DNA of 64,000 bases from Rickettsiales bacterium UBA2645 (GTDB lineage: Bacteria; Pseudomonadota; Alphaproteobacteria; Rickettsiales; UBA1997): positions 7,418-71,417 of the forward strand of contig DENL01000003.1 in the NCBI GenBank assembly GCA_002359655.1, written 5' to 3'. Position numbers and translations under genes: made by a program. Within the stretch, counting starts at the first letter, position 1, and every line of letters starts with the position of its first letter. Positions 11,905 to 30,276 of this stretch are shown piece by piece. Under the pieces are notes generated by a model. The model made no database searches. It saw only the letters and a list, made by a program, of their open reading frames with translations, and was not told the origin of the DNA.

Positions 11905-11922
11905 CATTAAAAAATAAAAACT

Positions 11923-12529: not shown

Positions 12530-15291
12530 ATAATAACTTCAACCAATTTTTCTTCCGCTATCAATTCAATTTTTTTGGCGTTGCAAACATTAGCTAAATC
12601 TTCGACGAATTTTTCAATGCCAACAACCCTTGCAACTCTTACCTTCTCAACAGTTGTTTTCATTGAAATATTTTTTTCTGACTTAAATTTGCGAACTTCA
12701 AAAATCACTTCCAACAATAATTTTCCATCTTCGATTAAACTTTGATCAAAAAATTTCTCATCAAGTTTTGGCCAGTTACCTCTAGCATTTATCGACTGAG
12801 TTTTAGTAAATTCTTCAGCAAAAAGTGCTGAGTAAATTTCGTCACAAATATGCGGAATAAAAGGCGCAAAAAGTTTCAGAATTGTGTTTAAACAAATTTC
12901 TAAAGCTTTGATTGCACTTTGTTGTTTAGCTTGAATTTCTGCTTTTTGTAAATCGCTAAGCTTAGTTCCAACAAGCTTTTCTGCTGCCAAACCGTAAGAG
13001 CGAACTTTGCAAATTTCTAAATAATTGTCGCAAAAATCACGCCAGAAAAATTCTTCAATTGCTTCGCGAGCTTTGGCATATTCAAACTTCTCAAACTCGG
13101 CTGTGGCGCGTTTTACGGTTTCTTGTAAACGACTCAAAATCCAAAGATCTGAAGCTTGCGTAACTTTTGCATCTTCACGCAATAATTCAAAATTCATCGA
13201 AGCAAATTTCGCGGCGTTAAAAAGTTTGGTAATTAATTTTTGGCCGATTTTAAAAACATCTTCAATGTAAGCAGTGTCAGCACCCAAATGCGAAGTTGAA
13301 GCCCAATAGCGCACAATATCTGAACCTTTTTCTTCAATCAGAGAAGTTGGAGTCACCACATTGCCTTTTGATTTACTCATTTTGGTTTTATCGGCAGCTA
13401 AGCACCAGCCCGAGATCATCAAGTTTTTCCACGGCACAGAATTTTGATGCAAAGTCGATTTTACTAAAGTGTAAAAAGCCCAAGTACGAATGATTTCATG
13501 AGCTTGTGGACGAAGATCGGCTGGGAAAAGTTTTTCGTGACGCTGTTGGTCGAAAGAAATTTCAGCAGAAATTCCTTTGCTTGAAAGTTGTGGGCTAATT
13601 GAAGAAGTCGCCCAAGTGTCCATGATGTCAGTTTCAGCTGTAACTTCTGCGCGTGAGTATCCGCGAGGCAAATCAATTGCCGGATCGCAGGGAAGTTGAT
13701 CAACATCTGCAACTAAAATTTTTCCTTCTTCGCCTGCCCGCTTGGAATACCAAACTGGAAAAGCCACACCGAAAAAACGCTGGCGGCTGATACACCAATC
13801 CCATTGCAAACCATCAATCCATTGATCGATGCGCACTTTCATATATTCAGGGAACCAATTGCACTCAGCAGCTTTGGCTTTGAGCAAATCTTTTTTGTCG
13901 AGAATTTTAATAAACCATTGTGGCACTACCAGAATTTCGATTGGCACACCAGAGCGCTCGGCGCATTTCACGGCGCGTTTGATGGTTTCTTGTTTAAGTA
14001 GAATGCTCGAGTTAATACCTTCCCCTTGAGGGAGGGTCGAAGTCGCTTGCGACTTCAAGGCGGGGTTAGATTGCGATGTAACTTCAGATTCGTAACCCCT
14101 CACCGAAGGGCTTAAGCCCTTCGACTCCCCCTCAAGGGGGGAGTGATTAGATCGAGTGTTTTTTAAAGCTTCTATTATTGCTTCTTTAGCTTGTTTAATG
14201 GTTTTGCCAGCTACTAAACTTTCATAAAAATTAAAAAATATTTTCAGATCAACGCATTCGGATTTTTTTAAGTTCCATACTTCAATGATGTTTCCTTTTT
14301 GATAATCATTTGAACCAAATTCTAACTCTGTAAAATCATCAGCAAACTTAAAAGACTGATAGCAAGAAGAAATTCTGCCGTCTTTTTCGATAATTATTCT
14401 TAAATCCAAGTTATGCCTCTTCCACCATCTGATGTCAGTTTCATCACCAAAAGTACAACACATTACCGCGCCAGTTCCTTTATCGAGCTGAACTAAATCG
14501 TCAGGAATAATTTTTACTTTCACGCCAAAAAGTGGCGTGATGGCATTTTGTCCGTGGAGTTTTTTGTAGCGCTCATCTTCCGGGTGAACCATGACAGCAA
14601 CGCAAGCCGGCAATAGCTCGGGACGAGTTGTCATTATTTCAAGTTTTTCGTCTGAACCTTCGATGCCAAATAAGATGTAATTCATTTGGCCTTCAACTTC
14701 TTTGTCTACAAGATCAGCTTGCGCTAGAGCGGTGCGGTCGGAAATGTCCCAGAAAACTGGTTCGAATTTTTTTTCTACTAATTTTTTATTGTAGAGATCA
14801 ACAAAACTCGCTTGCGAAATTTTTTGCGATTCAGGTGAAATCGTTTGATATTTCTGCTTCCAATCAACTGACAAAGCAATTGAGTTAAAGAGAATTTCAA
14901 ATTCTTTTTCCGCGTCATCAACAACTTCGCGACATTTTTTTACAAAAGATCCACGGCCATTTTCTGCCTCAAAAACTCCAGCTTTTTTTTCAATAATTTT
15001 TTCAACTAAACGCTCAGTTGGCAGGCCGTTATCGTCAAAGCCCATCGGGTAGAAAACATCTTTGCCATACATGCGCATGAAACGCGCTACGAAATCAGCC
15101 TGAGAATAAGAGAAAACATGTCCCATATGTAAAACGCCTGAAACTGTAGGAGGCGGAGTGTCGATTACAAAAGTTTGGTTTTTTGGTAAATCGTTTTTGA
15201 AAGCGAAAATTTGTTTTTCTAACCAGTGGTTTTGCCAGAATTTTTCGCGAGCTTTTGGATCATAGCGATCGGGTAGTTTTTTTTCAGACAT
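12526..15291 (-). CDS. valS: Valyl-tRNA synthetase, archaeal/Rickettsia type, carrying an in-frame repeat insertion
   Basis: TPPPTVSGVLHMGHVFSYSQADF, PMGFDDNGLPTE and KMSKSKGNVV class-I motifs; 921 aa. Confidence 0.95.
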   Translation of the reverse strand: MSEKKLPDRYDPKAREKFWQNHWLEKQIFAFKNDLPKNQTFVIDTPPPTVSGVLHMGHVFSYSQADFVARFMRMYGKDVFYPMGFDDNGLPTERLVEKIIEKKAGVFEAENGRGSFVKKCREVVDDAEKEFEILFNSIALSVDWKQKYQTISPESQKISQASFVDLYNKKLVEKKFEPVFWDISDRTALAQADLVDKEVEGQMNYILFGIEGSDEKLEIMTTRPELLPACVAVMVHPEDERYKKLHGQNAITPLFGVKVKIIPDDLVQLDKGTGAVMCCTFGDETDIRWWKRHNLDLRIIIEKDGRISSCYQSFKFADDFTELEFGSNDYQKGNIIEVWNLKKSECVDLKIFFNFYESLVAGKTIKQAKEAIIEALKNTRSNHSPLEGESKGLSPSVRGYESEVTSQSNPALKSQATSTLPQGEGINSSILLKQETIKRAVKCAERSGVPIEILVVPQWFIKILDKKDLLKAKAAECNWFPEYMKVRIDQWIDGLQWDWCISRQRFFGVAFPVWYSKRAGEEGKILVADVDQLPCDPAIDLPRGYSRAEVTAETDIMDTWATSSISPQLSSKGISAEISFDQQRHEKLFPADLRPQAHEIIRTWAFYTLVKSTLHQNSVPWKNLMISGWCLAADKTKMSKSKGNVVTPTSLIEEKGSDIVRYWASTSHLGADTAYIEDVFKIGQKLITKLFNAAKFASMNFELLREDAKVTQASDLWILSRLQETVKRATAEFEKFEYAKAREAIEEFFWRDFCDNYLEICKVRSYGLAAEKLVGTKLSDLQKAEIQAKQQSAIKALEICLNTILKLFAPFIPHICDEIYSALFAEEFTKTQSINARGNWPKLDEKFFDQSLIEDGKLLLEVIFEVRKFKSEKNISMKTTVEKVRVARVVGIEKFVEDLANVCNAKKIELIAEEKLVEVII
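14006..14156. repeat. RPE-like modular palindromic element, copy A (inside valS)
   Basis: GC-rich island with terminal inverted repeats (ctcgagttaataccttccccttgaggg... / ...ccctcaaggggggagtgattagatcgag). It shares modules with 42716-42852, 54380-54527 and 57564-57746. Boundaries are accurate to a few nt. Confidence 0.85.
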
Positions 15292-18445: not shown

Positions 18446-20191
18446 TTACGTTCTTTTGTAGTTATTAAATTTACTGAGAGAGCAAATTTTTTCTTCAGAA
18501 AGATAGGGGAATTGATCTTGAATTGGCTTTCCCATTTCAAGCTTTGGCTCAATCAAAGTATTTTGATGCAGAATTATTTCTATCACTACCGGTCCCTTGT
18601 AATCAAAAATTTCTTTCGTGATGTTATCAAGAGATTCAACTCTAAAATATTTTATACCGTAAGCCTCAACAACTTTTCTAAAGTCAGGGGTACTATAGCC
18701 TTTTCCAGTGGCTTCATACCTACTTTCAAAATACAAATCTTGAAACTGCTTTATAATCCCATACCCGTCATTATTAAGAATAAAAAGCTTTAGATTTAGG
18801 TTATAAAAATATGCAGTTTGAAGCTCTTGTATATTCATCTGGAATGACCCATCTCCTATGAAAGCAATAACTTCTCTTTGGGGCTTGTGCAATGCTCCAC
18901 CTATTGCAGCTGGAAAAGAATAAGCCATTGGAGAGTTACCTCCAGCAGTGCAAAGGACCTGATTTGTTCTGTGAAATATTTGGAAAACCCAACATAAGCT
19001 TGCCCCAGTATCAGCGATGACCACTGCATCATCGCTAATCATTTTATTAATTTTTTGAACCACCAAATAAGGTGACAAGGTATTGTTATTTTTAGAAAAC
19101 TCACTTGCGTCTTTGCCAAAAAATTCTTTTTTCAAACTAGCTGCGTAATCAATCCAATCTTGGCTTGAATTAATAGAGACTAATAAAATTTCTTTAACAT
19201 GTTTTAAATTTAAGTGGATGGTTTTATAGCCTTCGTGCTTATATTTTTTGAGCTCTTCGCCATCGACATCAATCACACAAACCTTAGCTACCGGAGCAAA
19301 TGATTTAGGATTTCCGGAGCGTTGTCTGTTATCTAATCTACTTCCAAGAACCAACAAAGTATCGCAATTTTGCACTAAAGAATTTGCACCTCTATTGCCA
19401 TAAACTCCTATCTGACCATGATAGTTTTTCATATTGTGATTGAAGTAAGTCATGCCATTCCAACTTGAAACAAAAGGAACTGATGAATTTTCTTGTAACC
19501 ATTTTACCACATCATTTTCGGCACCAGCAAGACCTACGCCAGCACCGAATAGAACAACTGGTCGCTTTGAATCTTTAAAAAAGTGTAAAATTTCTTGAGA
19601 AATTTTTTGTATTTCTTGCACAGATAATTTTTTTTCTACTGGCGCATTATAAATAATCTTATCACCAACTTCTTCTTTCTGCACATTAATCGGAACATCA
19701 ATCAAAACTGGTCCTTTGCGGTCAGAGATCGCAATATTATAAGCTTTTTCCAATTCTATTTTTAGTTCTTCACCGTTTTTAACCTGCACCGCATATTTTG
19801 TAATTGGCTTAACAATATCGACTATATTGGTTTCTTGAAATCCAGCTTGTCTAACTTTTGTACCAATAAAATTTGCACTTTCGCCTTGGTTAACTTGCCC
19901 AGTGATATGAAAAGTTGGTATTGAATCGAAGTAAGAACAAGCAATACCAGTAACAAGATTTGTTGCGCCAGGACCAGAAGTTGCAACCGTGACACCAACT
20001 GTGCGATCAATTCTCCACAAAGAATCTGCAGCCATTGCAGCAGCTTGCTCATGTTGAAAACAAACGTAGTCAGTATTCGGATTTCTTCCAATCGCATCAA
20101 CAATAAAAGCACAGGCTCCACCCGTTACTAGAAAAAATTTATCCGAACCCCTTTGGCGAAAAAATTCCGCGATATACTCTGCCCCAATCAT
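18446..20191 (-). CDS. Thiamine-diphosphate-dependent enzyme, acetolactate-synthase-like (possible YerE-type sugar branching enzyme)
   Basis: 581 aa. The N-terminal Pyr domain has ATSGPGATNL; the C-terminal PP domain has GDGSFQMNIQEL...NNDGYG. It is the last gene of the nucleotide-sugar cluster. Confidence 0.8.
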   Translation of the reverse strand: MIGAEYIAEFFRQRGSDKFFLVTGGACAFIVDAIGRNPNTDYVCFQHEQAAAMAADSLWRIDRTVGVTVATSGPGATNLVTGIACSYFDSIPTFHITGQVNQGESANFIGTKVRQAGFQETNIVDIVKPITKYAVQVKNGEELKIELEKAYNIAISDRKGPVLIDVPINVQKEEVGDKIIYNAPVEKKLSVQEIQKISQEILHFFKDSKRPVVLFGAGVGLAGAENDVVKWLQENSSVPFVSSWNGMTYFNHNMKNYHGQIGVYGNRGANSLVQNCDTLLVLGSRLDNRQRSGNPKSFAPVAKVCVIDVDGEELKKYKHEGYKTIHLNLKHVKEILLVSINSSQDWIDYAASLKKEFFGKDASEFSKNNNTLSPYLVVQKINKMISDDAVVIADTGASLCWVFQIFHRTNQVLCTAGGNSPMAYSFPAAIGGALHKPQREVIAFIGDGSFQMNIQELQTAYFYNLNLKLFILNNDGYGIIKQFQDLYFESRYEATGKGYSTPDFRKVVEAYGIKYFRVESLDNITKEIFDYKGPVVIEIILHQNTLIEPKLEMGKPIQDQFPYLSEEKICSLSKFNNYKRT

Positions 20192-20209
20192 AGTTTTTAT
20201 TGTTTAATG

Positions 20210-20989
20210 TTACCAAATTTTCCAAGGTGCCTTACAGCCATTCCAAAGGCTTTCTAAATGAATCTTATCGCGCTGCGTATCCATCGCATACCAGAAATCT
20301 TCATGCTTGTATGACATTAGCTGATTGGCTGCGGCTAGATTTTTTAAAGGCTGCTGCTCTAGCATCACATCATCACCATCTGGAATGTAATCGAAAATTT
20401 TTTGTGAAAAAACGAAGAATCCACCATTGATGTAATTGCCATCGCCCGAAGGTTTTTCGTGAAAATTTTTTACCGTAGTATCGTCGTCAGAAATTTCTAG
20501 AACTCCAAATCTGCCAGCTGGCTTCACTGCTGTTAGCGTTGCAGCTTTGCCGTGAACTTTGTGAAACTCGATCGTCTTGGCAATATCAACATCACAAACC
20601 CCGTCTCCGTAAGTTAGGCAGAAATTTTCTTCACCCTTTAAATAATCTTTAACTTTTTTAATGCGGGCTCCAGTCATTCTATTTTCACCAGTTTCAACCA
20701 AAGTCACTTTCCATTTTTCAGAATTATTATTGTGAATGGTATGAGTATTATTGGAAAGATCGTAAGTGACATCCGAAGTGTGACGATAGTAATTAGCAAA
20801 ATATTCTTTGATCATGTATCCTTTATAACCAAGACAAATCACGAAATCATTGATGCCATGAGCTGAGTAGATTTTCATAATATGCCACAAAATCGGCTTG
20901 TTACCAACTTCAACCATCGGCTTTGGTTTAAAAGTTGTTTCTTCGCTAAGTCTTGTCCCAAGACCACCGGCCAGAATCACTGCTTTCAT
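20210..20989 (-). CDS. rfbF: Glucose-1-phosphate cytidylyltransferase
   Basis: MKAVILAGGLGTRLSEET..KPKPMVE.G.KPILWHIMK.Y; 259 aa, classic RfbF/DdhA. Confidence 0.9.
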   Translation of the reverse strand: MKAVILAGGLGTRLSEETTFKPKPMVEVGNKPILWHIMKIYSAHGINDFVICLGYKGYMIKEYFANYYRHTSDVTYDLSNNTHTIHNNNSEKWKVTLVETGENRMTGARIKKVKDYLKGEENFCLTYGDGVCDVDIAKTIEFHKVHGKAATLTAVKPAGRFGVLEISDDDTTVKNFHEKPSGDGNYINGGFFVFSQKIFDYIPDGDDVMLEQQPLKNLAAANQLMSYKHEDFWYAMDTQRDKIHLESLWNGCKAPWKIW

Positions 20990-22035
20990 AAACTGTTATT
21001 TTTTTGATACCAAAGAAAGGTACTTTTTATTGCTTTTTCAAGAGAGGTATATTGTTCCAAACCCAACTCCAGCTTAGCTTTCTCATTGCAAGAAATGTAG
21101 CGCGAGCTAGATGAAGTATTAAAACCTTGATTGTCAGAAAAGGCAATTTTTGATTTTGAAGAAAGGGTTTTTACAACTAATCCTGCTAGGTCTTCTATTA
21201 AAATTTCTTGCGAAGAACCAACGTTATAAACGGAATTGTTTGGCGCAGAAATTAAAATTCTCATCAGCCAAATCGCTAAATCAATTGAGTAAAGATAGGA
21301 GCGATAGGTTTTGGATTTAGATTGAAGAATCACATCTTTATTATTTGCAACGTCACGAATAAAATTTCCGATCGCATAGTGACCATCAAAATTCATATAG
21401 GGACCAACAAAACTGAAGCATCTAGCAACACTAGTTTGAACAGCGTAAGAGGAGGAATAAATTGAGCATAAAATCTCGCCCAATCTTTTTGCCTCACCGT
21501 AAACTGAAGATATTTTTTGCAAGTCAGGAGCAGATAGATCGCTTTCCAAACGCAATTTCATATCCAGATTTTGAGCACCATAAATTGCGCCAGAACTCAA
21601 ATAAAGAAATCTACAACCCTTGTTGGATCTAGCAATTTCCAGCATATTTTGAGTGCCTAGGTAATTTTCTTCTAAAAATTTGTGGGGAGAATTTTTAAGT
21701 CTTTCTGAGGAAGTGTCGCAAGCGGCGTGAATTATGTAATCAACTTTGTCGTGAAAATCTTTTAACTGAGAAATGTTAGATTCAATCAAATTGATTTTTG
21801 AAGAACTAAGAATAGGAAATTTCTTTTTAAAAGATTCTAAGTTTCTTGAAACAGCATAAATCTTGATATTCAAACCATGCCTCCAATCAAGATGTAGAAG
21901 ACATTCCAATAAGCATCGACCAAAAAACCCACTAGCACCAGAAACAAGAATTGACTTATCTCTTAATTCTCCAGGCAAGTCAAAGAGCTTGGTTTCAAAA
22001 AGCTCGAGATCAGATTTGTCGATTGAAAAATGCAT
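20986..22035 (-). CDS. NAD-dependent nucleotide-sugar epimerase/reductase (extended SDR)
   Basis: VSGASGFFGRCL Rossmann motif and a Y-x3-K (YGEAKRLGE); 349 aa. Substrate cannot be read from sequence. Confidence 0.75.
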   Translation of the reverse strand: MHFSIDKSDLELFETKLFDLPGELRDKSILVSGASGFFGRCLLECLLHLDWRHGLNIKIYAVSRNLESFKKKFPILSSSKINLIESNISQLKDFHDKVDYIIHAACDTSSERLKNSPHKFLEENYLGTQNMLEIARSNKGCRFLYLSSGAIYGAQNLDMKLRLESDLSAPDLQKISSVYGEAKRLGEILCSIYSSSYAVQTSVARCFSFVGPYMNFDGHYAIGNFIRDVANNKDVILQSKSKTYRSYLYSIDLAIWLMRILISAPNNSVYNVGSSQEILIEDLAGLVVKTLSSKSKIAFSDNQGFNTSSSSRYISCNEKAKLELGLEQYTSLEKAIKSTFLWYQKNNSL

Positions 22036-23240
22036 TAGATTTTAGTCTTCAAAAATTCTTCAATTGTGTTGTGCATATGAGCAATCATTTCTCCATTCAA
22101 CCCGTGATGACAAGCCAGTAAAACGCCACCACGCATAATATTATCAGAATTGTCTAAACTTGCCGCTTTTCTCATTTCAAGATTTTTATAACCTGGTTGG
22201 CGAGTAATATTGCCAGTGAAAACTACACGGGTTTGGATATTTCTTTTTTCTAAATAGATTTGGAAATCACGACGCTCGAAAGGCGCGCTATCTTTGATTA
22301 TAATTGGGAAAGCTAACCAACCAGTTCTGCAATTTGCGGTTTCTTGCGGCAGCGTGAAAAACTCTTCATATTTTTTGAAGAAGTTGGTTTGAGTTTGATA
22401 ATTTTTGCGACGAGTTTCGATATTATGCTCTAAATCTTCTAACTGCTTCAAACCAAAGGCAGCACCGATTTCTGAGCCTTCTAAATTATATCCGATAGTT
22501 TCAAAAACAAATTTCGCGTCATATTTGATGCCATCAATATCAACATTAAAGCGGTTTTCAATCGCTTCTGATTTTTCATCAAAAATTGATGAACTACGGC
22601 CCCAAGAGCGCAGCAATTTAGATTTTCTCAGCTGTTCATCATCATTTATACATAAAGCTCCGCCGTTGCCGGCACAGTTGATAATATGTGAACCATAAAA
22701 GCTGGTAATAGACATATCAGACCAAGTTCCACTTGATTTGCCATTTAAAGTTGCACCCAAAGTGTCGGCCGAGTCTTCGATGACTTTCAGATTATATTTT
22801 TTAGCAATTGCAGCAATTTTGTCCCACTCACAAAGATTGCCCATTAAATTGGGAGCAACGATTGCCACGGTTTTATCCGAAATCATTTCTTCAATTTTTG
22901 TGACATCAATACAGTAATCAGAAACACCGACATCAACAAAAACCGGCACTAAACCATTTTTTACAATACAGCCGACAGTGGTTGAGAATGTTAGAGCTGG
23001 CGTAATTACTTCACTTCCCATTTTAAAACCAAAAGCTTCCATACCGATATAAAGCGCTGAAGAGCCCGAGTTGACATAAAGACAATGTTTTTTGTCAAAA
23101 AGCGCAGCGATTTTTGCTTCAAATTCGCGGGCATATTTACCCATTTGCGTACCTTCTTGCAGGCATTTTACCACGGCGTCAATTTCTTTTTGTCCGTAAA
23201 CAGTTTTTGCATAGGAAACACTAATATCTTGACTAGTCAT
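22035..23240 (-). CDS. rfbH: NDP-4-keto-6-deoxyhexose 3-dehydratase (RfbH/DdhC/ColD branch of the DegT/DnrJ/EryC1 family)
   Basis: DegT-fold aminotransferase-like. At the PLP-lysine position it reads SFYGSH(185)IINCAGNGGAL, with His in place of Lys. That substitution is the hallmark of the PMP-dependent 3-dehydratases E1 and ColD. Confidence 0.75.
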   Translation of the reverse strand: MTSQDISVSYAKTVYGQKEIDAVVKCLQEGTQMGKYAREFEAKIAALFDKKHCLYVNSGSSALYIGMEAFGFKMGSEVITPALTFSTTVGCIVKNGLVPVFVDVGVSDYCIDVTKIEEMISDKTVAIVAPNLMGNLCEWDKIAAIAKKYNLKVIEDSADTLGATLNGKSSGTWSDMSITSFYGSHIINCAGNGGALCINDDEQLRKSKLLRSWGRSSSIFDEKSEAIENRFNVDIDGIKYDAKFVFETIGYNLEGSEIGAAFGLKQLEDLEHNIETRRKNYQTQTNFFKKYEEFFTLPQETANCRTGWLAFPIIIKDSAPFERRDFQIYLEKRNIQTRVVFTGNITRQPGYKNLEMRKAASLDNSDNIMRGGVLLACHHGLNGEMIAHMHNTIEEFLKTKI

Positions 23241-23243
23241 TGT

Positions 23244-24368
23244 TTAACTAATTTTGAGTTTGATCAGGAGAAAATAATCGGTGAGAAAATTCTTAAGCGT
23301 TGTCAGTCTTTTTCTTGAAGAGCTCAAAAATTTTTGCATTGGATTTTTGGGGCATGCTGTTTCAAGATTTTCTTTTTGCAATAAGAAAAACCGCTCTTTT
23401 TTTACTTTCATTTTTTTTGGGTTTAGTGCAACCGAATCATTCTCTATAATATCCGAAATCAGGTTGAATGCATTATATTTGTCCATCACCAAATCTCTTG
23501 CTAAAAATAGTTGCTCAAAATTTTTCTCATAAAAATTTTCAAAAATTAATTTTTCAATTTTAGCAATTGCAGTTTTGGGATATTTAATATCGATCTCTGT
23601 AACTTGAGCATCAGTAAAATAATTGTTAATATTGGTAGCACCACAATAAATTGGATGAGTCAGAACCATCAAAGGATCTATCAATTTTTCAGTCCAATAA
23701 TCCGGTGATTGGGAATTTTCTAAAGCAATGTGATATTTATAAGGCGCGATTCCTTGCCATTTACTATCAATTGGTCTTACTCCAATTCCGAACCAATCGA
23801 TCTTGTCTTTGAAGTGATTTTTTAATTTTTGACAAAAGTTAAAGCGCGCTTTGTGACCTTGAGTAAAGATTTTATTAGAACAAAAAACTGATAAAAGCTT
23901 TTCTTTCTTGATCTGACGCAGGTTTTTAAAATCGTTATAACCAAGTCCATCACCTTGCCATTTTTGAAATTCTTCTTTTGACTTAATTGGACTACCACCG
24001 TCAATCCACCAATTTATTGGGGGCCGACAAGGAAAAGCTCTATTATGTTTGAAATTTTCTTGCGAGCTATAAACGCGACCGAATTGTTTTACAAAATCTG
24101 ACGAATCGTCGTAAGATTTGATAGATCTGGGTTCACCAGTCATTAAAATTATGTTTCGTGGATCAACTTCGCATTCTTCTTCATCAAACTCTATGTCACC
24201 AATTATGATCCAGTGATCAGCTTTTTTTATTGTCGTATCATTCCAAAAAAATTGGCAATTTTTCCAGATATTACTGCGAGATGGTAAGAACTTGAAAACC
24301 ATTGGGTTACTGTGATCAGGCCATGATAAGGTTGATCCAGCACAGCTGATTTTAACAATCTTCATCAA
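23244..24368 (-). CDS. GT10-like glycosyltransferase (alpha-1,3/4-fucosyltransferase family)
   Basis: YKYHIALENSQSPDYWTEKLIDPLMVLTHPIYCGA matches the GT10 motif YKF.L.FENS...GYVTEK..D.....IPIYWG as I remember it from Helicobacter FucT. Confidence 0.7.
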   Translation of the reverse strand: MMKIVKISCAGSTLSWPDHSNPMVFKFLPSRSNIWKNCQFFWNDTTIKKADHWIIIGDIEFDEEECEVDPRNIILMTGEPRSIKSYDDSSDFVKQFGRVYSSQENFKHNRAFPCRPPINWWIDGGSPIKSKEEFQKWQGDGLGYNDFKNLRQIKKEKLLSVFCSNKIFTQGHKARFNFCQKLKNHFKDKIDWFGIGVRPIDSKWQGIAPYKYHIALENSQSPDYWTEKLIDPLMVLTHPIYCGATNINNYFTDAQVTEIDIKYPKTAIAKIEKLIFENFYEKNFEQLFLARDLVMDKYNAFNLISDIIENDSVALNPKKMKVKKERFFLLQKENLETACPKNPMQKFLSSSRKRLTTLKNFLTDYFLLIKLKIS

Positions 24369-24370
24369 AT

Positions 24371-25210
24371 TTAATCTCCGAATCTTTTTCTTAATTTTTT
24401 ACACGCTTTAGCAACTAAAAATATCTTACCAAAAACACCAAAACCGCGCGAACTGCATTTTTTTAAAATATCAATTTGATCAAGCTGCATCTGCTTTCTT
24501 GAAGCATCAATTTTATTTTGAGCATTACCTAAAGATTTTTGCCAAGCCTTAACATGATCAGCATCAGAAAATGATAACTTAGTTTGGCGCCAGTTGTAAA
24601 TTGAGCGAGAAGCGTAAAGTAATCTTCCTTCACGCGCCATATTACAAACAAAAACATGGTCATTACCAAGCATTGCTCTCATCGGATATTTTTGCGCAAT
24701 TTCTGTACGATAAATTCCAAACAAGGCAGAAACATCGTGAAGATGAGCAATCAAACAATAAACGCGTTGAGCTGGAAAGTCTGAAGCTAAACGATCGGCA
24801 TACCAAAAATCATAAATTCCAATTTCTAAATCATCATTATCAACATGACGACAGGCTGGATAACAACCAACAGCATCAGTATTTTCAAGCATGTGAAGTA
24901 TGTGACTAGAATAGCCTTCATCAAGATAATCATGACCTCCGCTCCACATAAAATATTTTGTTTTGGCTTGAGCCAAAACAAAATTAAAATTCCATGTTCC
25001 ACCCTGATTTTCTTGGTGGCGGATATAAATCAAATTTGAGTATTTTTTTGCTAATTCTTCGCAAATTTTTTGCGTATCGTCTGTTGAAGCGTTATCAGAA
25101 ATAATCACTCGCGCTGCCTGATTGATACAACTGTCAATAGTTTTTCTTATATACTTACCCTCGTTATAAGCAGGAATACCAATGGTTAACAACTCTTTGT
25201 AGTATTTCAT
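24371..25210 (-). CDS. Glycosyltransferase family 2
   Basis: LTIGIPAYNEGKYIRKTIDSCINQ...VIISDNASTDDT: GT2 N-terminal signature. Confidence 0.85.
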   Translation of the reverse strand: MKYYKELLTIGIPAYNEGKYIRKTIDSCINQAARVIISDNASTDDTQKICEELAKKYSNLIYIRHQENQGGTWNFNFVLAQAKTKYFMWSGGHDYLDEGYSSHILHMLENTDAVGCYPACRHVDNDDLEIGIYDFWYADRLASDFPAQRVYCLIAHLHDVSALFGIYRTEIAQKYPMRAMLGNDHVFVCNMAREGRLLYASRSIYNWRQTKLSFSDADHVKAWQKSLGNAQNKIDASRKQMQLDQIDILKKCSSRGFGVFGKIFLVAKACKKLRKRFGD

Positions 25211-25212
25211 AG

Positions 25213-26259
25213 CTAAAATAATTTTAATCTTTTTTCCAACTCTTCTAAATCAACGATCATGTCGGTATGAAATTCATTGATATAGAAATTATTTTGATCA
25301 ATCTCACAATGTTGGTAGTCATGCTCTAAACCACAAGCCTGCGATAATTCGCTAAACCATGTACCACCATTTTTATCTCCATATTCCTTTTTAGGATATA
25401 GTTCTAAAACTTTAGTATCCTCTCGGGCAAACATGATATTAGTTAAATTAGATCCGCATTGACTTACAATATAATCAGCATTGTAGACTATCGCTACACC
25501 ATCTTCGAAATTAAAATCTTCCATATTAACAATTGCAAAACCATATCTGAGCAATAGTTGATCAACATCTTTTTGATTAAGAATAATCCTCTTCTTCTGT
25601 CTGCTGCGAGAAATAAATATTTTTTTCCCTAAATTAAAATCTAATTTGTTATGCAACTTACAATAATTCAACATCTCATCCCTTAGATCTATAATAGCTG
25701 AATCATGGGTAGTATTGATTAAACTACCTCCCAAAGCACAAGAAACAAAAAACATTTGGCTTGATTTTACCACCTCTTTTTTATCAATAATAATGAGCTG
25801 ATTCTCTTCTATTCCAAGCATCTTAAGAGATGAGAGACAAAAATTATTCTTATAGTAATTAATAGGAATGACAATTTTAAAATTACTTTTAATGATTTTT
25901 TTAGCCAAAGAAATCCTAACCATCATATCGCATAACCAGTGATAATACATCACATGAAAACTATCATAAACCACCAACACTGGATCTTTCTCGACCTTTA
26001 ACTTTGCCTTCAAATATTTAACTAACCGCTTTTGTTTTTTATAGAAACTAGATTCATGGTCAGAAAGAGTTTCTTTCATCCATCTTAGGCCACGAAATAT
26101 TACTCCATTTGAATCAACCGAAGCTTCACCATAATCAAATAGTTTAATTTCCTTGGTTTTTCCTAAATAAGAAATTTTTTGAGAATAATTTGATGGTAAT
26201 ACCCTCTTAATAGTGACTTCTGGCAGTAAAACTTGCGAACTTGTTCTTCTATTTATCAT
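25213..26259 (-). CDS. GT61/DUF563-like glycosyltransferase
   Basis: MYYHWLCDMMVRI and ..KIFISRSRQKKRIILNQKDV..LL..GF..V.ME... resemble the DUF563 pattern (YyHWl.d.lPRl ... R.i.Ne.ev). Confidence 0.65.
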   Translation of the reverse strand: MINRRTSSQVLLPEVTIKRVLPSNYSQKISYLGKTKEIKLFDYGEASVDSNGVIFRGLRWMKETLSDHESSFYKKQKRLVKYLKAKLKVEKDPVLVVYDSFHVMYYHWLCDMMVRISLAKKIIKSNFKIVIPINYYKNNFCLSSLKMLGIEENQLIIIDKKEVVKSSQMFFVSCALGGSLINTTHDSAIIDLRDEMLNYCKLHNKLDFNLGKKIFISRSRQKKRIILNQKDVDQLLLRYGFAIVNMEDFNFEDGVAIVYNADYIVSQCGSNLTNIMFAREDTKVLELYPKKEYGDKNGGTWFSELSQACGLEHDYQHCEIDQNNFYINEFHTDMIVDLEELEKRLKLF

Positions 26260-27320
26260 TCTTTTATAAAATTTTGGATTTGAGCAATGGTGAAGTTTTT
26301 AACATCGAGAGGAGTTTTTAAGTAATTCTTATACCAATCCGCTGTCCATTTAATTGTTTCTTCAAAAGATAACTTTGGATGCCAATTTAATTCAGATTTA
26401 GCGCGACCATTATCTAGTTTTAAAATTCCCGCTTCATGCAATTTATTCTCATCTTCACTGATTTTGTAAGAACCCGTTTCAAGATTTTGTAATAATAATT
26501 TCGTTAAATTTTCTACATTAACTTCCGCCGCAGAATTTGGGCCAAAATTATAAGCTTTGGCAAAAGCATCTTTTTTTTCGTAAAGATTTTTAGTCAGAAT
26601 TAAATAACCAAAAAGTGGCTCTAAAACATATTGCCAAGGTCTGATTGATTTTGGTGAGCGCAACTCAACTTCTTTTTGATCACGAATTGCTCGAAAAATA
26701 TCGGGAATGATACGATCAACCGAAAAATCGCCGCCGCCAATAACATTGCCGGCCCGAACTGAAGCAATAGCAATGCCTTCTTTTTGAAAAAAAGAACGAC
26801 GATAAGATGAAGTTAAAATTTCAGCGCAAGCCTTACTTGATGAATATGGATCATAGCCGCCAAGTGAATCTTCTTCTTTATAAGAATAATCGATTTCTTT
26901 ATTTTCGTAACATTTATCAGTAGTGATATTGGTGATCACCTTAACGCTACCAGATTTTCTTGCTGCTTCAAAAACATTGAGAGTGCCAATCACGTTGGTT
27001 TCATAAGTTTTACGCGGATCAAAATAAGAGTCGCGTACCAAGGGCTGCGCTGCCATGTGAATAATAATTTCTGGCTGAAAATTTTTTACCACTGAAGCGA
27101 TCTCATCAGCATGACGAATATCACCAATGACAGATTTTTCCAATACTTCACCAACTTTTGCTAAATTAAAAAGACTTTCATAATCCGCCTTCAAAGCAAA
27201 ACCACAAACTTTTGCACCCATGATTTCAAGCCACAAAGAAAGCCATGCGCCTTTGAAACCAGTATGACCAGTCAACAATATTTTTTTACCAGAGTAAAAA
27301 TTTTTAAGATTTATGTTCAT
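26256..27320 (-). CDS. rfbG: CDP-glucose 4,6-dehydratase
   Basis: KKILLTGHTGFKGAWLSLWLEIMGAKV and YSSSKACAE (Y-x3-K); 354 aa. Confidence 0.88.
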   Translation of the reverse strand: MNINLKNFYSGKKILLTGHTGFKGAWLSLWLEIMGAKVCGFALKADYESLFNLAKVGEVLEKSVIGDIRHADEIASVVKNFQPEIIIHMAAQPLVRDSYFDPRKTYETNVIGTLNVFEAARKSGSVKVITNITTDKCYENKEIDYSYKEEDSLGGYDPYSSSKACAEILTSSYRRSFFQKEGIAIASVRAGNVIGGGDFSVDRIIPDIFRAIRDQKEVELRSPKSIRPWQYVLEPLFGYLILTKNLYEKKDAFAKAYNFGPNSAAEVNVENLTKLLLQNLETGSYKISEDENKLHEAGILKLDNGRAKSELNWHPKLSFEETIKWTADWYKNYLKTPLDVKNFTIAQIQNFIKE

Positions 27321-27322
27321 CT

Positions 27323-28252
27323 CTAAGCCTTATTTTGTAGATACCAGCGATAAACAATATTTAAACCATCTTCCAAAGAAGTTTTGGCTTTCCAGCCAAG
27401 GGAATTAATTTTTGAAACGTCTAAACATTTACGTGGAGTGCCGTCAGGCTTGGTTGAATCGAATTTCAACTCTCCAGTGAAGCCGACAGTTTTTTGAACT
27501 AATTCGGCTAATTCGCGAATTGTAGCATCCTCGCCGGTGCCGATATTGGTGAGTCCAGTTACTTCTTTGTTATTCATAATATAAACACAGGCCTCAGCTA
27601 GATCATCAACATAAAGTAGTTCGCGCTTAGGCATACCAGTGCCCCAGACTTCGACAAAATTATCGCCGCGTAGTTTTGCTTCGTGGAATTTACGCATCAA
27701 AGCTGGTAGAACGTGAGATCCGTTTAAATCAAAATTGTCGTTAATGCCATAAAGATTGGTTGGCATAACTGGCACAAAATCGCAATCATATTGAGTGCGA
27801 TACGCTTCGCACATTTTTACGCCAGCAATTTTAGCAATAGCGTAGCCGTAATTTGTCGGTTCAAGTTGACCAGTTAAAAGATATTCTTCTTTAATTGGTT
27901 GCGGCGCCATGCGGGGATAGATGCAGGAGCTACCTAAAAAAATCAGACGCTCAACTTTGTTGAGATATGAGTTGTGAATAACATTGTTTTGAATTTGTAA
28001 ATTCTCGTAAGTGAAAGCGCCAATTTGAGATCTATTAGCTTCAATCCCACCAACTTTTGCTGCAGCTAAAAAAACAAATTCTGGTTTTTCAGATACAAAA
28101 AAATCAGTAACTTCTTTTTGATTAAGCAAATCTAATTCAGAACGATTTTTGGTGATAATGTTGTTATATCCTTGTTTTTTAAGCTCGCGTACAATTGCTG
28201 ATCCAACCATTCCGCGGTGACCAGCGACGTAAATTTTAGAATTTTTTTGCAT
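27323..28252 (-). CDS. fcl: GDP-L-fucose synthase-type 3,5-epimerase/4-reductase (Fcl/ColC family)
   Basis: IYVAGHRGMVGSAI, FLAAAKVGGI.AN, FLGSSCIYP, EPTN..YAIAKIAG.K.CE.Y..QY and MPTNLYG align closely with E. coli Fcl as I recall it. Confidence 0.9.
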   Translation of the reverse strand: MQKNSKIYVAGHRGMVGSAIVRELKKQGYNNIITKNRSELDLLNQKEVTDFFVSEKPEFVFLAAAKVGGIEANRSQIGAFTYENLQIQNNVIHNSYLNKVERLIFLGSSCIYPRMAPQPIKEEYLLTGQLEPTNYGYAIAKIAGVKMCEAYRTQYDCDFVPVMPTNLYGINDNFDLNGSHVLPALMRKFHEAKLRGDNFVEVWGTGMPKRELLYVDDLAEACVYIMNNKEVTGLTNIGTGEDATIRELAELVQKTVGFTGELKFDSTKPDGTPRKCLDVSKINSLGWKAKTSLEDGLNIVYRWYLQNKA

Positions 28253-28968
28253 TATATTGCCCTAATTTCTTTTAAAAATGCCTTGTCCAAACTGTCTTCT
28301 TGATGCTTGTCTTTAAATGCTTTTGGAGTTCCTTCGAAAACGATTTTGGTTTCGTTTAAAACTGCAATTGCGTCGCAAATTTCGTCCATGTCGGATAAAA
28401 TGTGCGAGCTAAAAAAAATAGTTTTGCCTAAGTTTTTGTATGCAATTAATTCTTTTTTTAAAGCGATGCGAGCTTTTGGATCTAGGCCAGACATTGGTTC
28501 ATCTAAAATTATTAAATCAGCTTCTGATAAAAAAACCGCCAAAAGGCCAAGTTTTTGCATCATGCCTTTAGAATATTTTGTGACTTTTTGTTTTAAAACT
28601 TCAAAGCGCAAATCAAGATTTTCACAAATTTTTTGCGCTCTCTTAGCATCATATTTTTTAGCGTAAAAATCTAAAACGAATTTAATAAATTCTTCGCCTT
28701 TTAGATGCTGACTTGGCTGGAATTTTTCTGGCAAGTAGCAAATTTTTTTACGACTTTCCGGCAAAACTCGAGATATTCCAAAAATCTCAATCTCACCGTT
28801 TTCTTGGTCGAGAAGATCAAGAGCAATTTTAATCAGGGTAGTTTTACCAACTCCATTTAAGCCAATAAAACCAAAAATATCATTTTGCTTAACTTCAAAA
28901 CTGACTTGATCGAGAACTGGCTTATTATTAAAAGATTTTGAAATTTCAGAAATTTTTAAGGGCAGCAT
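28252..28968 (-). CDS. ABC transporter ATP-binding protein (no adjacent permease)
   Basis: Walker A GLNGVGKTT, signature YSKGMMQKLGL, Walker B LIILDEP. Its stop overlaps the fcl start. Confidence 0.85.
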   Translation of the reverse strand: MLPLKISEISKSFNNKPVLDQVSFEVKQNDIFGFIGLNGVGKTTLIKIALDLLDQENGEIEIFGISRVLPESRKKICYLPEKFQPSQHLKGEEFIKFVLDFYAKKYDAKRAQKICENLDLRFEVLKQKVTKYSKGMMQKLGLLAVFLSEADLIILDEPMSGLDPKARIALKKELIAYKNLGKTIFFSSHILSDMDEICDAIAVLNETKIVFEGTPKAFKDKHQEDSLDKAFLKEIRAI

Positions 28969-28973
28969 TTTAA

Positions 28974-29417
28974 CTATTTTTTAGGTAAGAGATTGTTGAT
29001 CGCGAATAAAGAAATTGTGTAACCATCAACCCCCAAGCCAGAAATTACTGCGGTTACTACATCGCTTAAATAAGAATTTTGTCTGAACTCTTCGCGTTTA
29101 AAAATATTGGAAATATGCAACTCAATTTTTGGTTTGTTGAAAATTTCAAGTGCATCACGAATCGCAACCGAAGTATGCGTGTAAGCAGCGGCGTTGATGA
29201 TTATGCCGTCAAATTTGTCAACAGCTTCTTGGATTAAATCAACCAAAATGCCTTCATTATTTGATTGTTTAAATTCAATTTCCAAACCCAACTCTTTTGC
29301 CAAAACTCGACAATCATCTTCGATTTTTTTTAAAGAAGAATCGCCGTAAATTTCTTTGTCCCTTTTGTGCAAAAGATTTAGATTTGGACCATTCAAAATA
29401 AGAACTTTTTTAGACAT
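28974..29417 (-). CDS. aroQ: Type II 3-dehydroquinate dehydratase
   Basis: VLILNGPNLNLL..R...IYG, IINAAAYTHTSVAIRDA and E.HISNI motifs. Confidence 0.93.
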   Translation of the reverse strand: MSKKVLILNGPNLNLLHKRDKEIYGDSSLKKIEDDCRVLAKELGLEIEFKQSNNEGILVDLIQEAVDKFDGIIINAAAYTHTSVAIRDALEIFNKPKIELHISNIFKREEFRQNSYLSDVVTAVISGLGVDGYTISLFAINNLLPKK

Positions 29418-30276
29418 TGAGACTTCCAGATTTTTTGGCGGCTAATTCAATTTTTACAAATATAAAAATTGTAACGGGAATTGATAAAAAGTAAGTTATG
29501 CCAATCACCGCTAAAGCAAGCCAAGGCTCAACTAAAAGGCCAATGATTATTGATCCCAAAATCAATAGCGTGACATAAGCATATTCATTTTTGATGGGAA
29601 TTTTTTTAATCGAAATTGTCGGAATACGGCTGGCCATCAAAACGGCTATGATTGATGTGTAGGTAATTACCAAGAATGGATCGACATAAAAACCGTCACC
29701 GAATTCATAAAATAAAACCATTGGTAACATTGCCATTGCTGCTCCACAAGGTGCTGGAATTCCTTTGAAAAAATATTTTTCTAAAATTGGATTGACCGTC
29801 GCCTTGCCCAAATCAACATTAAAACGCGCTAAGCGAATCGCACTGCAAACAGCAAAAAATAAAACTAAAGCCCAATTTAAACCACCAACATTGGCATAAG
29901 AGCCAACCCAAATATAGATAACAAAACCGGGGACAATTCCAAAATTTACGAAATCAGCCAATGAATCTAGCTGAGCTCCAAAGTCGCTCGATGAATTGAA
30001 AAAACGCGCTAACCTGCCGTCAATTCCATCCATAAATCCTGCCAAAAGTAAGAATGAAGTAGCGCGCATAAATTCACCATTTATCGAATAGCGAATTGCA
30101 GTTAAACCAATACAAAGGCTGGCAAGCGTTATTATGTTTGGCAGTAGCTTTATTAGCGGAAAATATCCGCCCTCGCCACTTCTAATTTTTTGAATAATTC
30201 TTGTGGGCATTTTTTTAGCTTTGCGTTTTGAGAAATTGTAAAATTTTTCGCGGGGATTTTGATTTGCATTAATCAA
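29410..30276 (-). CDS. pssA: CDP-diacylglycerol--serine O-phosphatidyltransferase
   Basis: CDP-alcohol phosphatidyltransferase motif DGIDGRLARFFNSSSDFGAQLDSLADFV in a multi-TM protein. The true start may be the internal MPTRII (about 30210). Confidence 0.88.
   Translation of the reverse strand: MINANQNPREKFYNFSKRKAKKMPTRIIQKIRSGEGGYFPLIKLLPNIITLASLCIGLTAIRYSINGEFMRATSFLLLAGFMDGIDGRLARFFNSSSDFGAQLDSLADFVNFGIVPGFVIYIWVGSYANVGGLNWALVLFFAVCSAIRLARFNVDLGKATVNPILEKYFFKGIPAPCGAAMAMLPMVLFYEFGDGFYVDPFLVITYTSIIAVLMASRIPTISIKKIPIKNEYAYVTLLILGSIIIGLLVEPWLALAVIGITYFLSIPVTIFIFVKIELAAKKSGSLNV

Follow-up and report, generated by a model that had tools for sequence, protein, structure and literature searches.

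The ten-gene operon described here probably directs the synthesis of a surface glycan that carries a yersiniose-type sugar, namely, a CDP-activated 3,6-dideoxyhexose branched at C4; L-fucose is probably a further constituent. A branched, yersiniose-like sugar had been proposed in an earlier note on this DNA, a proposal which is supported by the phylogenetic grouping of the thiamine-diphosphate (ThDP) enzyme, by that of the 3-dehydratase and by the recurrence of the gene set in relatives. Biosynthesis is believed to be initiated by RfbF, which would form CDP-D-glucose, and continued by RfbG, which would yield CDP-4-keto-6-deoxy-D-glucose. The 3-hydroxyl would then be taken off by the His185 enzyme (401 aa) via a PMP Schiff base, with hydrolysis of the enamine giving CDP-4-keto-3,6-dideoxy-D-glucose and ammonia, and with glutamate or another amino donor restoring PMP. 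The ThDP enzyme is presumed to decarboxylate a 2-oxo acid and to attack the ketone at C4 with the resulting acyl anion, so that C4 becomes a tertiary alcohol bearing an acyl branch, the carbonyl of which would be reduced by the 349-aa short-chain dehydrogenase/reductase (SDR) to a 1-hydroxyethyl branch; the sugars would be installed by the GT61, GT2 and GT10 glycosyltransferases. The first two predicted steps rest on equivalog-level HMM matches above their cut-offs, and the following three are proposed on the basis of phylogeny, motifs and conserved gene neighbourhood.

Organization of the operon

The window, i.e., the whole 64-kb stretch of DNA that was analysed, derives from an uncultured Rickettsiales-like bacterium. 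A packed run of ten genes occupies its minus strand from position 28968 to position 18446, encoding, in that order, an ABC ATPase, Fcl, RfbG, the GT61, GT2 and GT10 glycosyltransferases, a DegT-fold protein, the SDR, RfbF and the ThDP enzyme, with a co-directional folD located 63 nt past the last of these genes. Because adjacent genes overlap by 1 to 4 nt or lie 2 to 18 nt apart, the translational coupling previously claimed for the cluster is a fair description. The five genes named in the earlier note are intact ORFs with correctly assigned coordinates, but the three glycosyltransferase genes between rfbG and the dehydratase gene had not been listed, and the operon starts further upstream than had been described, thus adding the Fcl and ABC ATPase genes. 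As had been noted for the reductase, neither an E3/DdhD-like ORF nor gmd was found across the 64 kb, which likewise contain no SDR or DegT gene beyond those of the operon.

Sugar activation and glycan assembly genes

The products of rfbF/ddhA (positions 20210 to 20989, minus strand, as for all genes below) and rfbG/ddhB (26256 to 27320) match the equivalog models for glucose-1-phosphate cytidylyltransferase (TIGR02623, 405 bits, cut-off 300) and CDP-glucose 4,6-dehydratase (TIGR02622, 463 bits, cut-off 278), respectively. The GDP-L-fucose synthase, Fcl (27323 to 28252), represents a separate GDP-sugar branch within the same glycan operon; its score is slightly below the cut-off of the NCBIfam model GDPFucSynFcl (479.8 versus 500 bits), and it matches the E. 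coli GDP-fucose synthetase 1BSV over residues 5 to 308 with 354 bits (E 4e-105). The ABC-transporter ATPase gene (28252 to 28968; Pfam ABC_tran), which is the first of the packed run and overlaps the Fcl gene by 1 nt, has no permease gene adjacent to it, and orthologues with 78 to 86% identity occupy the same position in loci L006, L089, L090 and L171 of related genomes. It is regarded as a gene that is conserved alongside the glycan island, in which any role it has is putative.

The glycosyltransferases belong to families GT61 (25213 to 26259; PF04577, E 3e-20), GT2 (24371 to 25210; PF00535, E 5e-28) and GT10 (23244 to 24368; PF00852, E 4e-10), the last being fucosyltransferase-like. Loci L006, L171 and L172 retain the GT2 gene at 65 to 76% identity, as well as a GT10 gene adjoining that of the dehydratase.

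A third lineage of predicted His-type sugar 3-dehydratases

The DegT-fold protein (22035 to 23240; 401 aa) is assigned as a PMP-dependent sugar 3-dehydratase on the basis of its motif, clade and genomic slot. The earlier observation that the PLP-binding lysine is replaced by histidine was confirmed: the motif SFYGSH185 is present, and in the alignment its histidine matches His220, the catalytic residue of E1 (AscC/DdhC/RfbH, PDB 3BCX), the CDP-4-keto-6-deoxy-D-glucose 3-dehydrase. This Lys-to-His change is a hallmark common to all three characterised 3-dehydratases (PMC8987622). Among solved structures, E1 gives the best match along the whole protein (E 1.5e-66), and it shares the slot after rfbF-rfbG. 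However, the window dehydratase is about 35 residues shorter at its N-terminus, has one extra residue between the histidine and the G(N/E)GG motif, scores 332 against a cut-off of 423 for the RfbH model, and lacks all four [2Fe-2S] cysteine ligands of E1, in that EDCCDALG of E1 reads EDSADTLG and WGRDCYCAPGCDNTC reads WGRSSSIFDEKSEAI. None of these ligands was present in any of 120 homologues (120/120).

In the tree, His-type proteins are split from the Lys-type aminotransferases with a support of 100, and within the former the window dehydratase falls into a clade of its own (support 100), sister to ColD plus E1 and comprising 200 metagenomic members with 66 to 97% identity. It is, therefore, a third His-type lineage, neither E1 nor ColD, as judged from sequence comparison, and is predicted to act as an E3-independent CDP-4-keto-6-deoxy-D-glucose 3-dehydratase. 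As had been noted, its length is about that of ColD, and it has no Fe-S site either. [quoted passage not shown] A ColD-like completion of the reaction is most likely, given that both the iron-sulfur site and an E3 partner are missing. Three scattered cysteines are near-invariant in the clade (C26, 98%; C137, 99%; C189, 100%), so that a non-canonical metal site remains conceivable.

Comparison of 80 loci, retrieved with the dehydratase protein alone, indicated that the dehydratase takes the slot of rfbH. Of the 44 loci spanning 7 kb or more, 42 carried rfbF and 39 carried rfbG. The order is rfbF-rfbG-dehydratase followed by tailoring genes of the AscE/AscF-like, abequose-synthase-like, YerE-like or split-transketolase kind. 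No E3 gene was found in any of the 80 loci; E3 was detected by both tests in two positive-control clusters and, outside these, nowhere in about 1 Mb. In a classical Sphingomonas cluster, the same slot is held by an Fe-S rfbH with E3 adjoining. The missing E3, raised previously as a caveat, is accounted for by a dehydratase without the Fe-S ligands that E3 would serve, belonging to a clade that is E3-free across these loci. The DegT-SDR-rfbF-ThDP core has a counterpart with 77 to 87% identity in a sister metagenome-assembled genome (L171), where its chromosomal location is the same, and L004 carries the same five-gene set.

A YerE-like carboligase and its candidate partner reductase

The last gene of the operon (18446 to 20191) encodes a 581-aa protein with three TPP_enzyme domains, the HEQ motif (Glu48) and the GDG(446-448)...NN(473-474) motif. 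Its top two solved relatives are PpYerE (5AHK, 1.4e-86) and JanthE (8RPH, 8.6e-81), the latter having been identified via a CDG motif (PMC12247030). A maximum-likelihood analysis under a site-heterogeneous model separated the family, together with YerE-like enzymes, from 16 acetolactate synthases (ALS) with 100/100 support, and a quick tree likewise placed the protein with YerE-like enzymes rather than with IlvB/IlvG. Insertions absent from ALS (TGQVN...RQxGFQE and RxDxRQ) are common to this protein and PpYerE. As some ALS resemble it as much as PpYerE does in pairwise identity (33 and 34%, respectively), the YerE-like assignment rests on the tree, the shared indels and the genomic context; in all contexts that were inspected, its relatives lie within CDP-sugar clusters. 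By these measures the protein is a YerE-like carboligase, the predicted reaction of which is the attachment of an acyl branch at C4 of a CDP-4-keto-3,6-dideoxyhexose. It belongs to a tight subfamily (at least 57% identity within), known from sequence alone, that is 31 to 34% identical to PpYerE and JanthE.

The extended SDR (20986 to 22035), present as previously reported, contains GASGFFG and YGEAK motifs, and the Asp/Glu-Lys dehydratase pair is absent from the aligned position. It is assigned as an NAD(P)H ketoreductase. [quoted passage not shown] The match includes the unusual N-terminal helix ahead of the Rossmann fold, but it is a weak one (E 8e-25), and the two substrates would differ. 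Of the 19 loci with a ThDP enzyme, 6 carry a homologue of the SDR with 30% identity or more, compared with 0 of the 61 loci lacking such an enzyme (p = 9e-5). The SDR is thus a candidate YerF-type reductase of the branch carbonyl.

Alternative interpretations

The branch is most likely an acetyl group derived from pyruvate, the operon harbouring no donor-making aldolase or PanB-like gene. A rather less probable version of the same pathway, although one worth bearing in mind, would employ a different 2-oxo acid (2-oxobutyrate, hydroxypyruvate or 4-hydroxy-2-oxobutanoate, for example) produced elsewhere in the cell, to give a longer or hydroxylated branch. YerE/YerF chemistry has known variants (ErwE, MMAR_2332 and MygE), the donor range of YerE-like enzymes differs widely, and ErwE refuses pyruvate (PMC9306805). 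The closest relatives of the ThDP enzyme (70 to 86% identity; L001, L003 and L172) are translationally coupled to a PanB-like hydroxymethyltransferase which could make or extend the donor, and the nearest homologue of all (P0002, 86% identity) has a PanB-like gene and an aminotransferase-acetyltransferase fusion in place of the SDR. Close family members therefore appear to serve different branch chemistries, which renders the donor, and hence the branch length, uncertain here. On the other hand, no aldolase, PanB-like or DmpFG-like gene was found in the operon or the window, sister locus L171 is likewise devoid of them, and YerE by default uses pyruvate as its donor (PMC12247030).

It is unlikely that the DegT-fold protein is instead an atypical aminotransferase or isomerase, the ThDP acceptor then keeping its 3-hydroxyl or bearing an amino group. 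Its clade has been described from predicted proteins only, its His185-to-GNGG spacing is that of Lys-type aminotransferases, unlike E1 or ColD, and ColD itself carries out a transamination half-reaction (PMC8987622); yet the clade bears the hallmark substitution, branches within the His-type dehydratases and occupies the place of rfbH immediately before genes of the AscE/AscF-like and abequose-synthase-like types, the known substrates of which are 3,6-dideoxy-4-keto sugars. The GDP-colitose pathway raised in the earlier note, in which the dehydratase would be ColD, with GDP-4-keto-6-deoxymannose as its substrate, and the Fcl-like protein would be ColC, is very improbable and was rejected. The length of the dehydratase, its lack of an Fe-S site and the Fcl-like gene would fit, and in Deianiraea an Fcl-like gene (63% identical) adjoins a true ColD-like gene, but ColD and that ColD-like protein form a separate clade (support 100), the window dehydratase family is linked to rfbF/rfbG in about 90% of long loci, a ColD-like gene, where present (L109, L127 and L162), is an additional gene, manC, like gmd, was not found in the window, and the Fcl-like protein closely matches GDP-fucose synthetase. 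Least probable of all is an ordinary anabolic ALS (IlvB/IlvG) that simply lies beside glycan genes. The top NCBIfam names are indeed ALS models, and homologues are annotated as acetolactate synthase in their sources; this reading was rejected because the protein falls below every NCBIfam ALS equivalog cut-off (best, 375 bits versus 538), is split from ALS in the tree, has neither an ALS small-subunit gene nor other ilv genes nearby and belongs to a family whose examined members lie within CDP-sugar clusters.

Relation to known branched-sugar pathways

The erwiniose cluster of Pectobacterium atrosepticum (ErwE, ErwF, the aldolase ErwI and the dehydrogenase ErwJ) likewise directs a ThDP enzyme and a reductase to CDP-4-keto-3,6-dideoxyglucose. 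Its architecture recurs with the Fe-S-free dehydratase in L008, L127 and L141, and L168 combines the dehydratase with a DmpF/DmpG-like pair, no ThDP gene being detected within its 6.9 kb. In contrast, the window lacks the aldolase/dehydrogenase pair, so that a short, pyruvate-derived branch is expected.

The yersiniose A pathway of Yersinia pseudotuberculosis O:VI (DdhA, DdhB, DdhC/E1, DdhD/E3, YerE and YerF) shares with the window operon its logic and its first two enzymes, proceeding through 3-deoxygenation of a CDP-4-keto-6-deoxyhexose to acylation at C4 by a ThDP enzyme and, lastly, to reduction of the branch. The window operon differs in its host, in the absence of E3, in a ThDP enzyme that is approximately 34% identical to a characterised YerE homologue and in an SDR whose equivalence to YerF is presumed. 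The kind of pathway is already known, except for the dehydratase lineage, which would remove the 3-hydroxyl with neither an iron-sulfur site nor a helper reductase.

Organization of the operon

The ORF map of the window shows that the minus strand is filled by co-directional genes from position 30276 to 12526, within which ten genes (28968 to 18446) are separated by junctions consisting of overlaps of 1 to 4 nt or gaps of 2 to 18 nt. Based on Pfam and NCBIfam scans, these minus-strand genes encode, in order, an ABC ATPase (28252-28968; Pfam ABC_tran), a GDP-fucose synthase designated Fcl (27323-28252; 479.8 bits, cut-off 500), the CDP-glucose 4,6-dehydratase RfbG (26256-27320; TIGR02622, 463 bits, cut-off 278), three glycosyltransferases assigned by Pfam to GT61 (25213-26259), GT2 (24371-25210) and a GT10-like type (23244-24368), a 401-aa DegT-fold protein of the His type and related to E1 (22035-23240), a 349-aa extended SDR with GxxGxxG and YxxxK motifs (20986-22035), the Glc-1-P cytidylyltransferase RfbF (20210-20989; TIGR02623, 405 bits, cut-off 300) and a three-domain, 581-aa thiamine diphosphate (ThDP) enzyme (18446-20191; Pfam TPP_enzyme_N, TPP_enzyme_M and TPP_enzyme_C). 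The five sugar-pathway genes named in the earlier note, and the His185 of the DegT-fold protein (here termed the dehydratase), are thus borne out, although its gene list had left out the three glycosyltransferases located between rfbG and the dehydratase gene.

The operon is bordered by housekeeping genes, with folD, a BamB-like gene and valS downstream and aroQ, a CDP-alcohol phosphatidyltransferase gene and tkt upstream, and the G+C content of the region is not unusual. The ABC ATPase gene (28252-28968), which lacks an adjacent permease gene, lies between aroQ and the glycan genes and is retained in the related loci L006, L089, L090 and L171. A role for folD, located directly 3' of the ThDP gene, as a feeder of PanB-type hydroxymethylation was considered and rejected, because the window harbors no PanB-like gene and folD is not kept at this position in L006, L171 and L172.

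The ThDP enzyme is a predicted YerE-like carboligase

The sequence of the ThDP enzyme contains the catalytic Glu48 of the HEQ motif, G446-D447-G448 and N473-N474. All acetolactate synthase (ALS) equivalog models scored below their cut-offs, the best being TIGR00118 with 375 bits (cut-off 538), and neither ilv genes nor a small regulatory subunit was present among the ORFs around the ThDP gene, whose neighbors are rfbF and folD. The top two solved relatives were 5AHK (E value of 1.4e-86), which we take to be PpYerE, and 8RPH (8.6e-81; JanthE), in which the CDG cofactor motif is present, followed by E. coli IlvB (9e-72). A structure of PpYerE exists, and JanthE has been described as having the CDG cofactor motif (PMC12247030); both 5AHK and 8RPH are YerE-like, ketone-accepting carboligases.

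As plain identity does not discriminate between YerE-like enzymes and ALS (34% to PpYerE versus 33% to an Enterococcus ALS), trees were constructed from 14 family members, the ThDP enzymes of related loci, PpYerE, JanthE and 16 genuine ALS sequences. The latter were obtained by a contig profile search with the ThDP family alignment, the listed matches of which were almost exclusively ALS, at approximately 32% identity. A quick tree (SH-aLRT 100) and a more careful one, computed with a site-heterogeneous model, gave the same result: all 16 ALS proteins fall on one side of a split supported at 100/100, and the window family, PpYerE, JanthE and an ErwE-type enzyme on the other, with approximately 1 change per site along the branch between the two sides. 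Furthermore, the segments TGQVN...RQxGFQE and RxDxRQ are common to the ThDP enzyme and PpYerE and are deleted in ALS. Since both the trees and these shared segments set the ThDP enzyme apart, the grouping with anabolic IlvB/IlvG that the earlier note had named as the outcome speaking against its proposal was not observed, and an identity as anabolic ALS (IlvB/IlvG/IlvI) is rejected in view of the scores below cut-off, the position outside the ALS clade and the absence of ilv neighbors. The ThDP gene shares its operon with rfbF, rfbG, the 3-dehydratase gene and the SDR gene, an arrangement which recurs in L004, L171 and other loci. The ThDP enzyme is, therefore, predicted to be a YerE-like carboligase, as it passes the in silico membership tests for such enzymes. 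A tblastn search of plasmids with the ThDP protein returned matches to ilvB and ilvG only, and no named YerE/YerF pair.

The SDR is a candidate CDP-sugar ketoreductase

The best solved relative of the SDR was 8V4G (E value of 8e-25), the match starting within the N-terminal extension of the SDR. [quoted passage not shown] Where dehydratases carry their acid/base pair, the SDR has Gly-Ala, which speaks for a simple reductase, and it is plausible that it represents a CDP-sugar ketoreductase. Among the 80 loci collected with the dehydratase (see below), SDR homologues with at least 30% identity were detected in 6 of the 19 with a ThDP enzyme versus none of the 61 without (Fisher p = 9e-5), a distribution which fits a putative YerF-type reduction of the branch carbonyl.

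A His-type dehydratase lacking the E1 iron-sulfur motif

At the sequence level, the similarity of the dehydratase to E1 (AscC/DdhC/RfbH) is unambiguous. Its best solved relative by far is Yersinia E1 (3BCX; E value of 1.5e-66, versus 7e-42 for ColD), and His185, conserved without exception in 200 family members, corresponds in the alignment to the catalytic His220 that replaces the PLP-binding Lys in E1. The protein nevertheless falls below the cut-off of the RfbH equivalog NF011936 (332 bits, cut-off 423), and none of the four positions of the E1 [2Fe-2S] motif, C-X57-C-X1-C-X7-C, is occupied by Cys, either in the window protein or in any of the 120 homologues retrieved. The first ligand region reads EDCCDALG in E1 and EDSADTLG in the window protein, while the remaining ligands lie within WGRDCYCAPGCDNTC in E1, corresponding to WGRSSSIFDEKSEAI in the window protein. 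The four Cys ligands are retained by the classical E1 proteins of L001, L003, L004, L169 and L170, which include those encoded beside related ThDP genes (L001, L003 and L004) and those of two control clusters from Salmonella and Sphingomonas. The loop replacing the E1 ligands is almost invariant throughout the dehydratase family, and it is therefore under selection rather than a decayed relic.

In a dehydratase tree comprising few sequences, from which SpnQ was left out, three lineages were resolved, namely, ColD, Fe-S E1 and the window family, the last with 100 support and a branch of 0.66. In the same small tree, the His-type enzymes were set apart from Lys-type aminotransferases with 100 support, which upholds the assignment of the protein as a His-type dehydratase. 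A 2022 review lists only E1, ColD and SpnQ as characterized nucleotide-sugar 3-dehydratases, of which only ColD lacks a cluster (PMC8987622), and no report of a CDP-hexose 3-dehydratase without an iron-sulfur cluster was found in the open-access literature.

Genomic context of the dehydratase family

A metagenome scan with the family alignment yielded 80 loci picked by the dehydratase alone, which were annotated by tblastn with a panel of window, context and control genes. Among the 44 loci of at least 7 kb, rfbF was present in 42 and rfbG in 39, the usual gene order being rfbF-rfbG-dehydratase. As the classical Sphingomonas cluster displays the matching order E3-rfbF-rfbG-rfbH-AscE-like-AscF-like, the window family occupies the exact slot of the Fe-S-containing rfbH. 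Tailoring genes, detected anywhere in the locus, were counted in the 45 loci that extend 2.5 kb or more downstream of the dehydratase gene: an AscE-like epimerase, usually accompanied by an AscF-like reductase, was present in 16, a YerE-like ThDP enzyme in 10, a split transketolase in 8 (plus 1 which also carries an AscE-like gene) and a reductase only in 3, with nothing recognized in 7. The known substrate of AscE/AscF-type tailoring enzymes is a 3,6-dideoxy-4-keto sugar.

E3 (AscD/DdhD) was sought both by its plant-type ferredoxin motif and by tblastn with two E3 sequences of 37% mutual identity, using as positive controls the two classical clusters of Salmonella and Sphingomonas, which had been obtained by plasmid tblastn with E1. 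Both methods detected E3 in both controls, and the window and 88 related loci (approximately 1 Mb) yielded no E3 by either method, in agreement with the earlier note, which had reported no E3/DdhD-type reductase in the window. Three loci with a classical E1 gene beside a related ThDP gene also have no E3 nearby, and the lack of E3 therefore carries weight only when considered together with the missing ligands.

Assignment and proposed mechanism of the dehydratase

The dehydratase thus departs from E1 in lacking the Fe-S motif, an E3 partner within the window and related loci and a score above the RfbH cut-off, while it resembles ColD in being a His-type, Fe-S-free enzyme and differs from it in clade membership. 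Even a ddhD gene at another place in the genome would not bring back E1-type catalysis, as the cluster motif is missing from the dehydratase. The earlier note had described the length of the protein (401 aa, His at 185) as closer to that of ColD than to that of E1 and had raised, as an alternative, a GDP-colitose pathway employing the adjacent Fcl/ColC-like gene. This alternative is not sustained by the present analysis: the dehydratase forms its own clade apart from ColD, E1 is the better solved match, and a full-length match (354 bits) links the Fcl-like protein to E. coli GDP-fucose synthetase. Fcl-like genes located beside true ColD-like genes (L109, L127 and L162) are only 34 to 40% identical to that of the window, and neither gmd, manC nor a second DegT gene is present in the 64-kb window. 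The GDP-colitose reading is consequently rejected on the basis of the separate clade, the rfbF/rfbG context and the absence of gmd and manC from the window. The GDP-fucose synthetase match, coupled with the lack of gmd, manC and a second DegT gene, instead suggests that, within this glycan, Fcl and the GT10-like glycosyltransferase serve a fucose branch of their own, the Gmd for which must be encoded outside the window or be missing.

ColD is the only precedent for an enzyme in which His replaces Lys and which operates with neither a cluster nor a reductase. The ColD route proceeds via a PMP Schiff base, proton abstraction by His with loss of the 3-OH, and enamine hydrolysis, with PMP being supplied from glutamate (PMC8987622). 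By analogy, the dehydratase would form a Schiff base between PMP and the sugar, His would abstract a proton with expulsion of the 3-OH, hydrolysis of the enamine would release the 3-deoxy-4-keto sugar and ammonia, and glutamate would regenerate PMP. Caution as to such a ColD-type mechanism is warranted because the spacing from His185 to GNGG is that of aminotransferases, unlike that of E1 or ColD, and because three scattered cysteines are near-invariant in 200 clade members (C26, 98%; C137, 99%; C189, 100%); as judged from the sequences, these three cysteines are specific to the Fe-S-free dehydratase clade.

On balance, it is considered slightly more probable than not that the dehydratase represents a third mechanistic lineage, which performs the CDP-dependent task of E1 by ColD-type chemistry without Fe-S or E3, and that it forms part of a widespread module feeding interchangeable cassettes. 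Its scaffold would have been derived independently, and its substrate would be CDP-4-keto-6-deoxyglucose, converted with neither an iron-sulfur cluster nor E3. The enzyme would constitute the standard 3-deoxygenation module of the CDP-3,6-dideoxyhexose clusters of many aquatic bacteria, feeding AscE/AscF-like, abequose-synthase-like, YerE-like or split-transketolase genes, and in the lineage of the window bacterium these cassettes would be exchanged at one fixed chromosomal site.

Variation at the chromosomal site and among ThDP gene neighborhoods

The site in question is flanked by tkt, the CDP-alcohol phosphatidyltransferase gene, aroQ and the ABC ATPase gene in the window (18446-30276), L006, L089, L090 and L171. 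In L171, from a sister MAG, the tkt-pssA-aroQ-ABC flank is as in the window and is followed by rfbG-GT2-GT10-dehydratase-SDR-rfbF-ThDP-GT61, with 76 to 87% identity to the window genes except for the GT10-like (53%) and GT61 (51%) products. At the same site, L006 has the same dehydratase-SDR-rfbF core followed by a split transketolase and a HAD phosphatase which replace the ALS-like enzyme, while L089 and L090 harbor an abequose-synthase-like reductase only. Because the tailoring genes vary among relatives in this manner, the site looks like a cassette-swapping surface-glycan island, in which the ThDP slot is a sugar-tailoring slot. A PhdYeFM/YoeB toxin-antitoxin pair is located between the phosphatidyltransferase gene and aroQ in L171 (1177-1690) and is absent from the window.

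Homologues of the ThDP enzyme with 57 to 86% identity are numerous in metagenomes, and also occur in Candidatus Deianiraea and an "Alphaproteobacteria bacterium" MAG, in keeping with a Rickettsiales host; each context examined was a sugar cluster. L004 carries rfbF-rfbG-E1-ThDP-SDR, its SDR being 40% identical to that of the window. L172, which encodes the closest ThDP homologue, shares the rfbG-GT2-GT10-dehydratase core but has a different upstream flank (a threonyl-tRNA synthetase-like gene), the dehydratase gene being accompanied by an aminotransferase/N-acetyltransferase fusion, rfbF, the ThDP gene and a PanB-like gene. In L008, the ThDP gene occurs with DmpF/DmpG-like genes, which corresponds to the ErwE/ErwI/ErwJ architecture described for erwiniose (PMC9306805).

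Several further arrangements were observed. A PanB-like gene (ketopantoate hydroxymethyltransferase family) is paired with the genes for the closest ThDP homologues, with translational coupling at their 3' ends, in L001 (Candidatus Deianiraea vastatrix; 11747-12598), L003 (11778-12728) and L172 (11749-12588). Its product might either generate a hydroxymethylated 2-oxo acid for use as the donor or lengthen the acetyl branch, and no description of this pairing was found in the literature consulted. In L006 (12980-15322), the slot of the ALS-like enzyme behind the Fe-S-free dehydratase is taken by the split transketolase (approximately 277 plus 304 aa). The same arrangement occurs in L108, L109, L115, L118, L124, L125, L137 and L162, and an aminotransferase/N-acetyltransferase fusion is often present as well. 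These loci suggest that a second ThDP superfamily branches the same CDP-sugar. In the Deianiraea locus (CP029077.1, 1123710-1145443), a ColD-like gene adjoining an Fcl-like gene, a gene for a classical E1 of the Fe-S type and a ThDP gene, the product of which shares 70% identity with the window enzyme, lie within 20 kb, with no E3 near these genes.

Comparison with known pathways and significance

Branched 3,6-dideoxy sugars act as strong antigens at the cell surface, and there is a demand for YerE-like enzymes as biocatalysts for chiral tertiary alcohols. The operon is predicted to work in a manner similar to that of the yersiniose pathway, with a YerE-like ThDP enzyme, whereas the 3-deoxygenation step is the variant part. 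As the ThDP enzyme passes the tests for YerE-like enzymes and predicted clusters of this kind number more than 200 (PMC12247030), the branching part is already of a known type, and the operon by itself represents a further YerE-like cluster, carried by a Rickettsiales-like bacterium, which is an unusual host.

The synthesis of CDP-dideoxyhexoses is, by textbook account, a function of the E1/E3 iron-sulfur pair, a requirement which a very widespread and highly conserved clade of dehydratases without the Fe-S motif of E1 appears to circumvent. If true, this would allow for a simpler enzymatic synthesis of CDP-3,6-dideoxy sugars, and thousands of genes currently named "E1", "RfbH" or "aminotransferase" would receive a corrected annotation.
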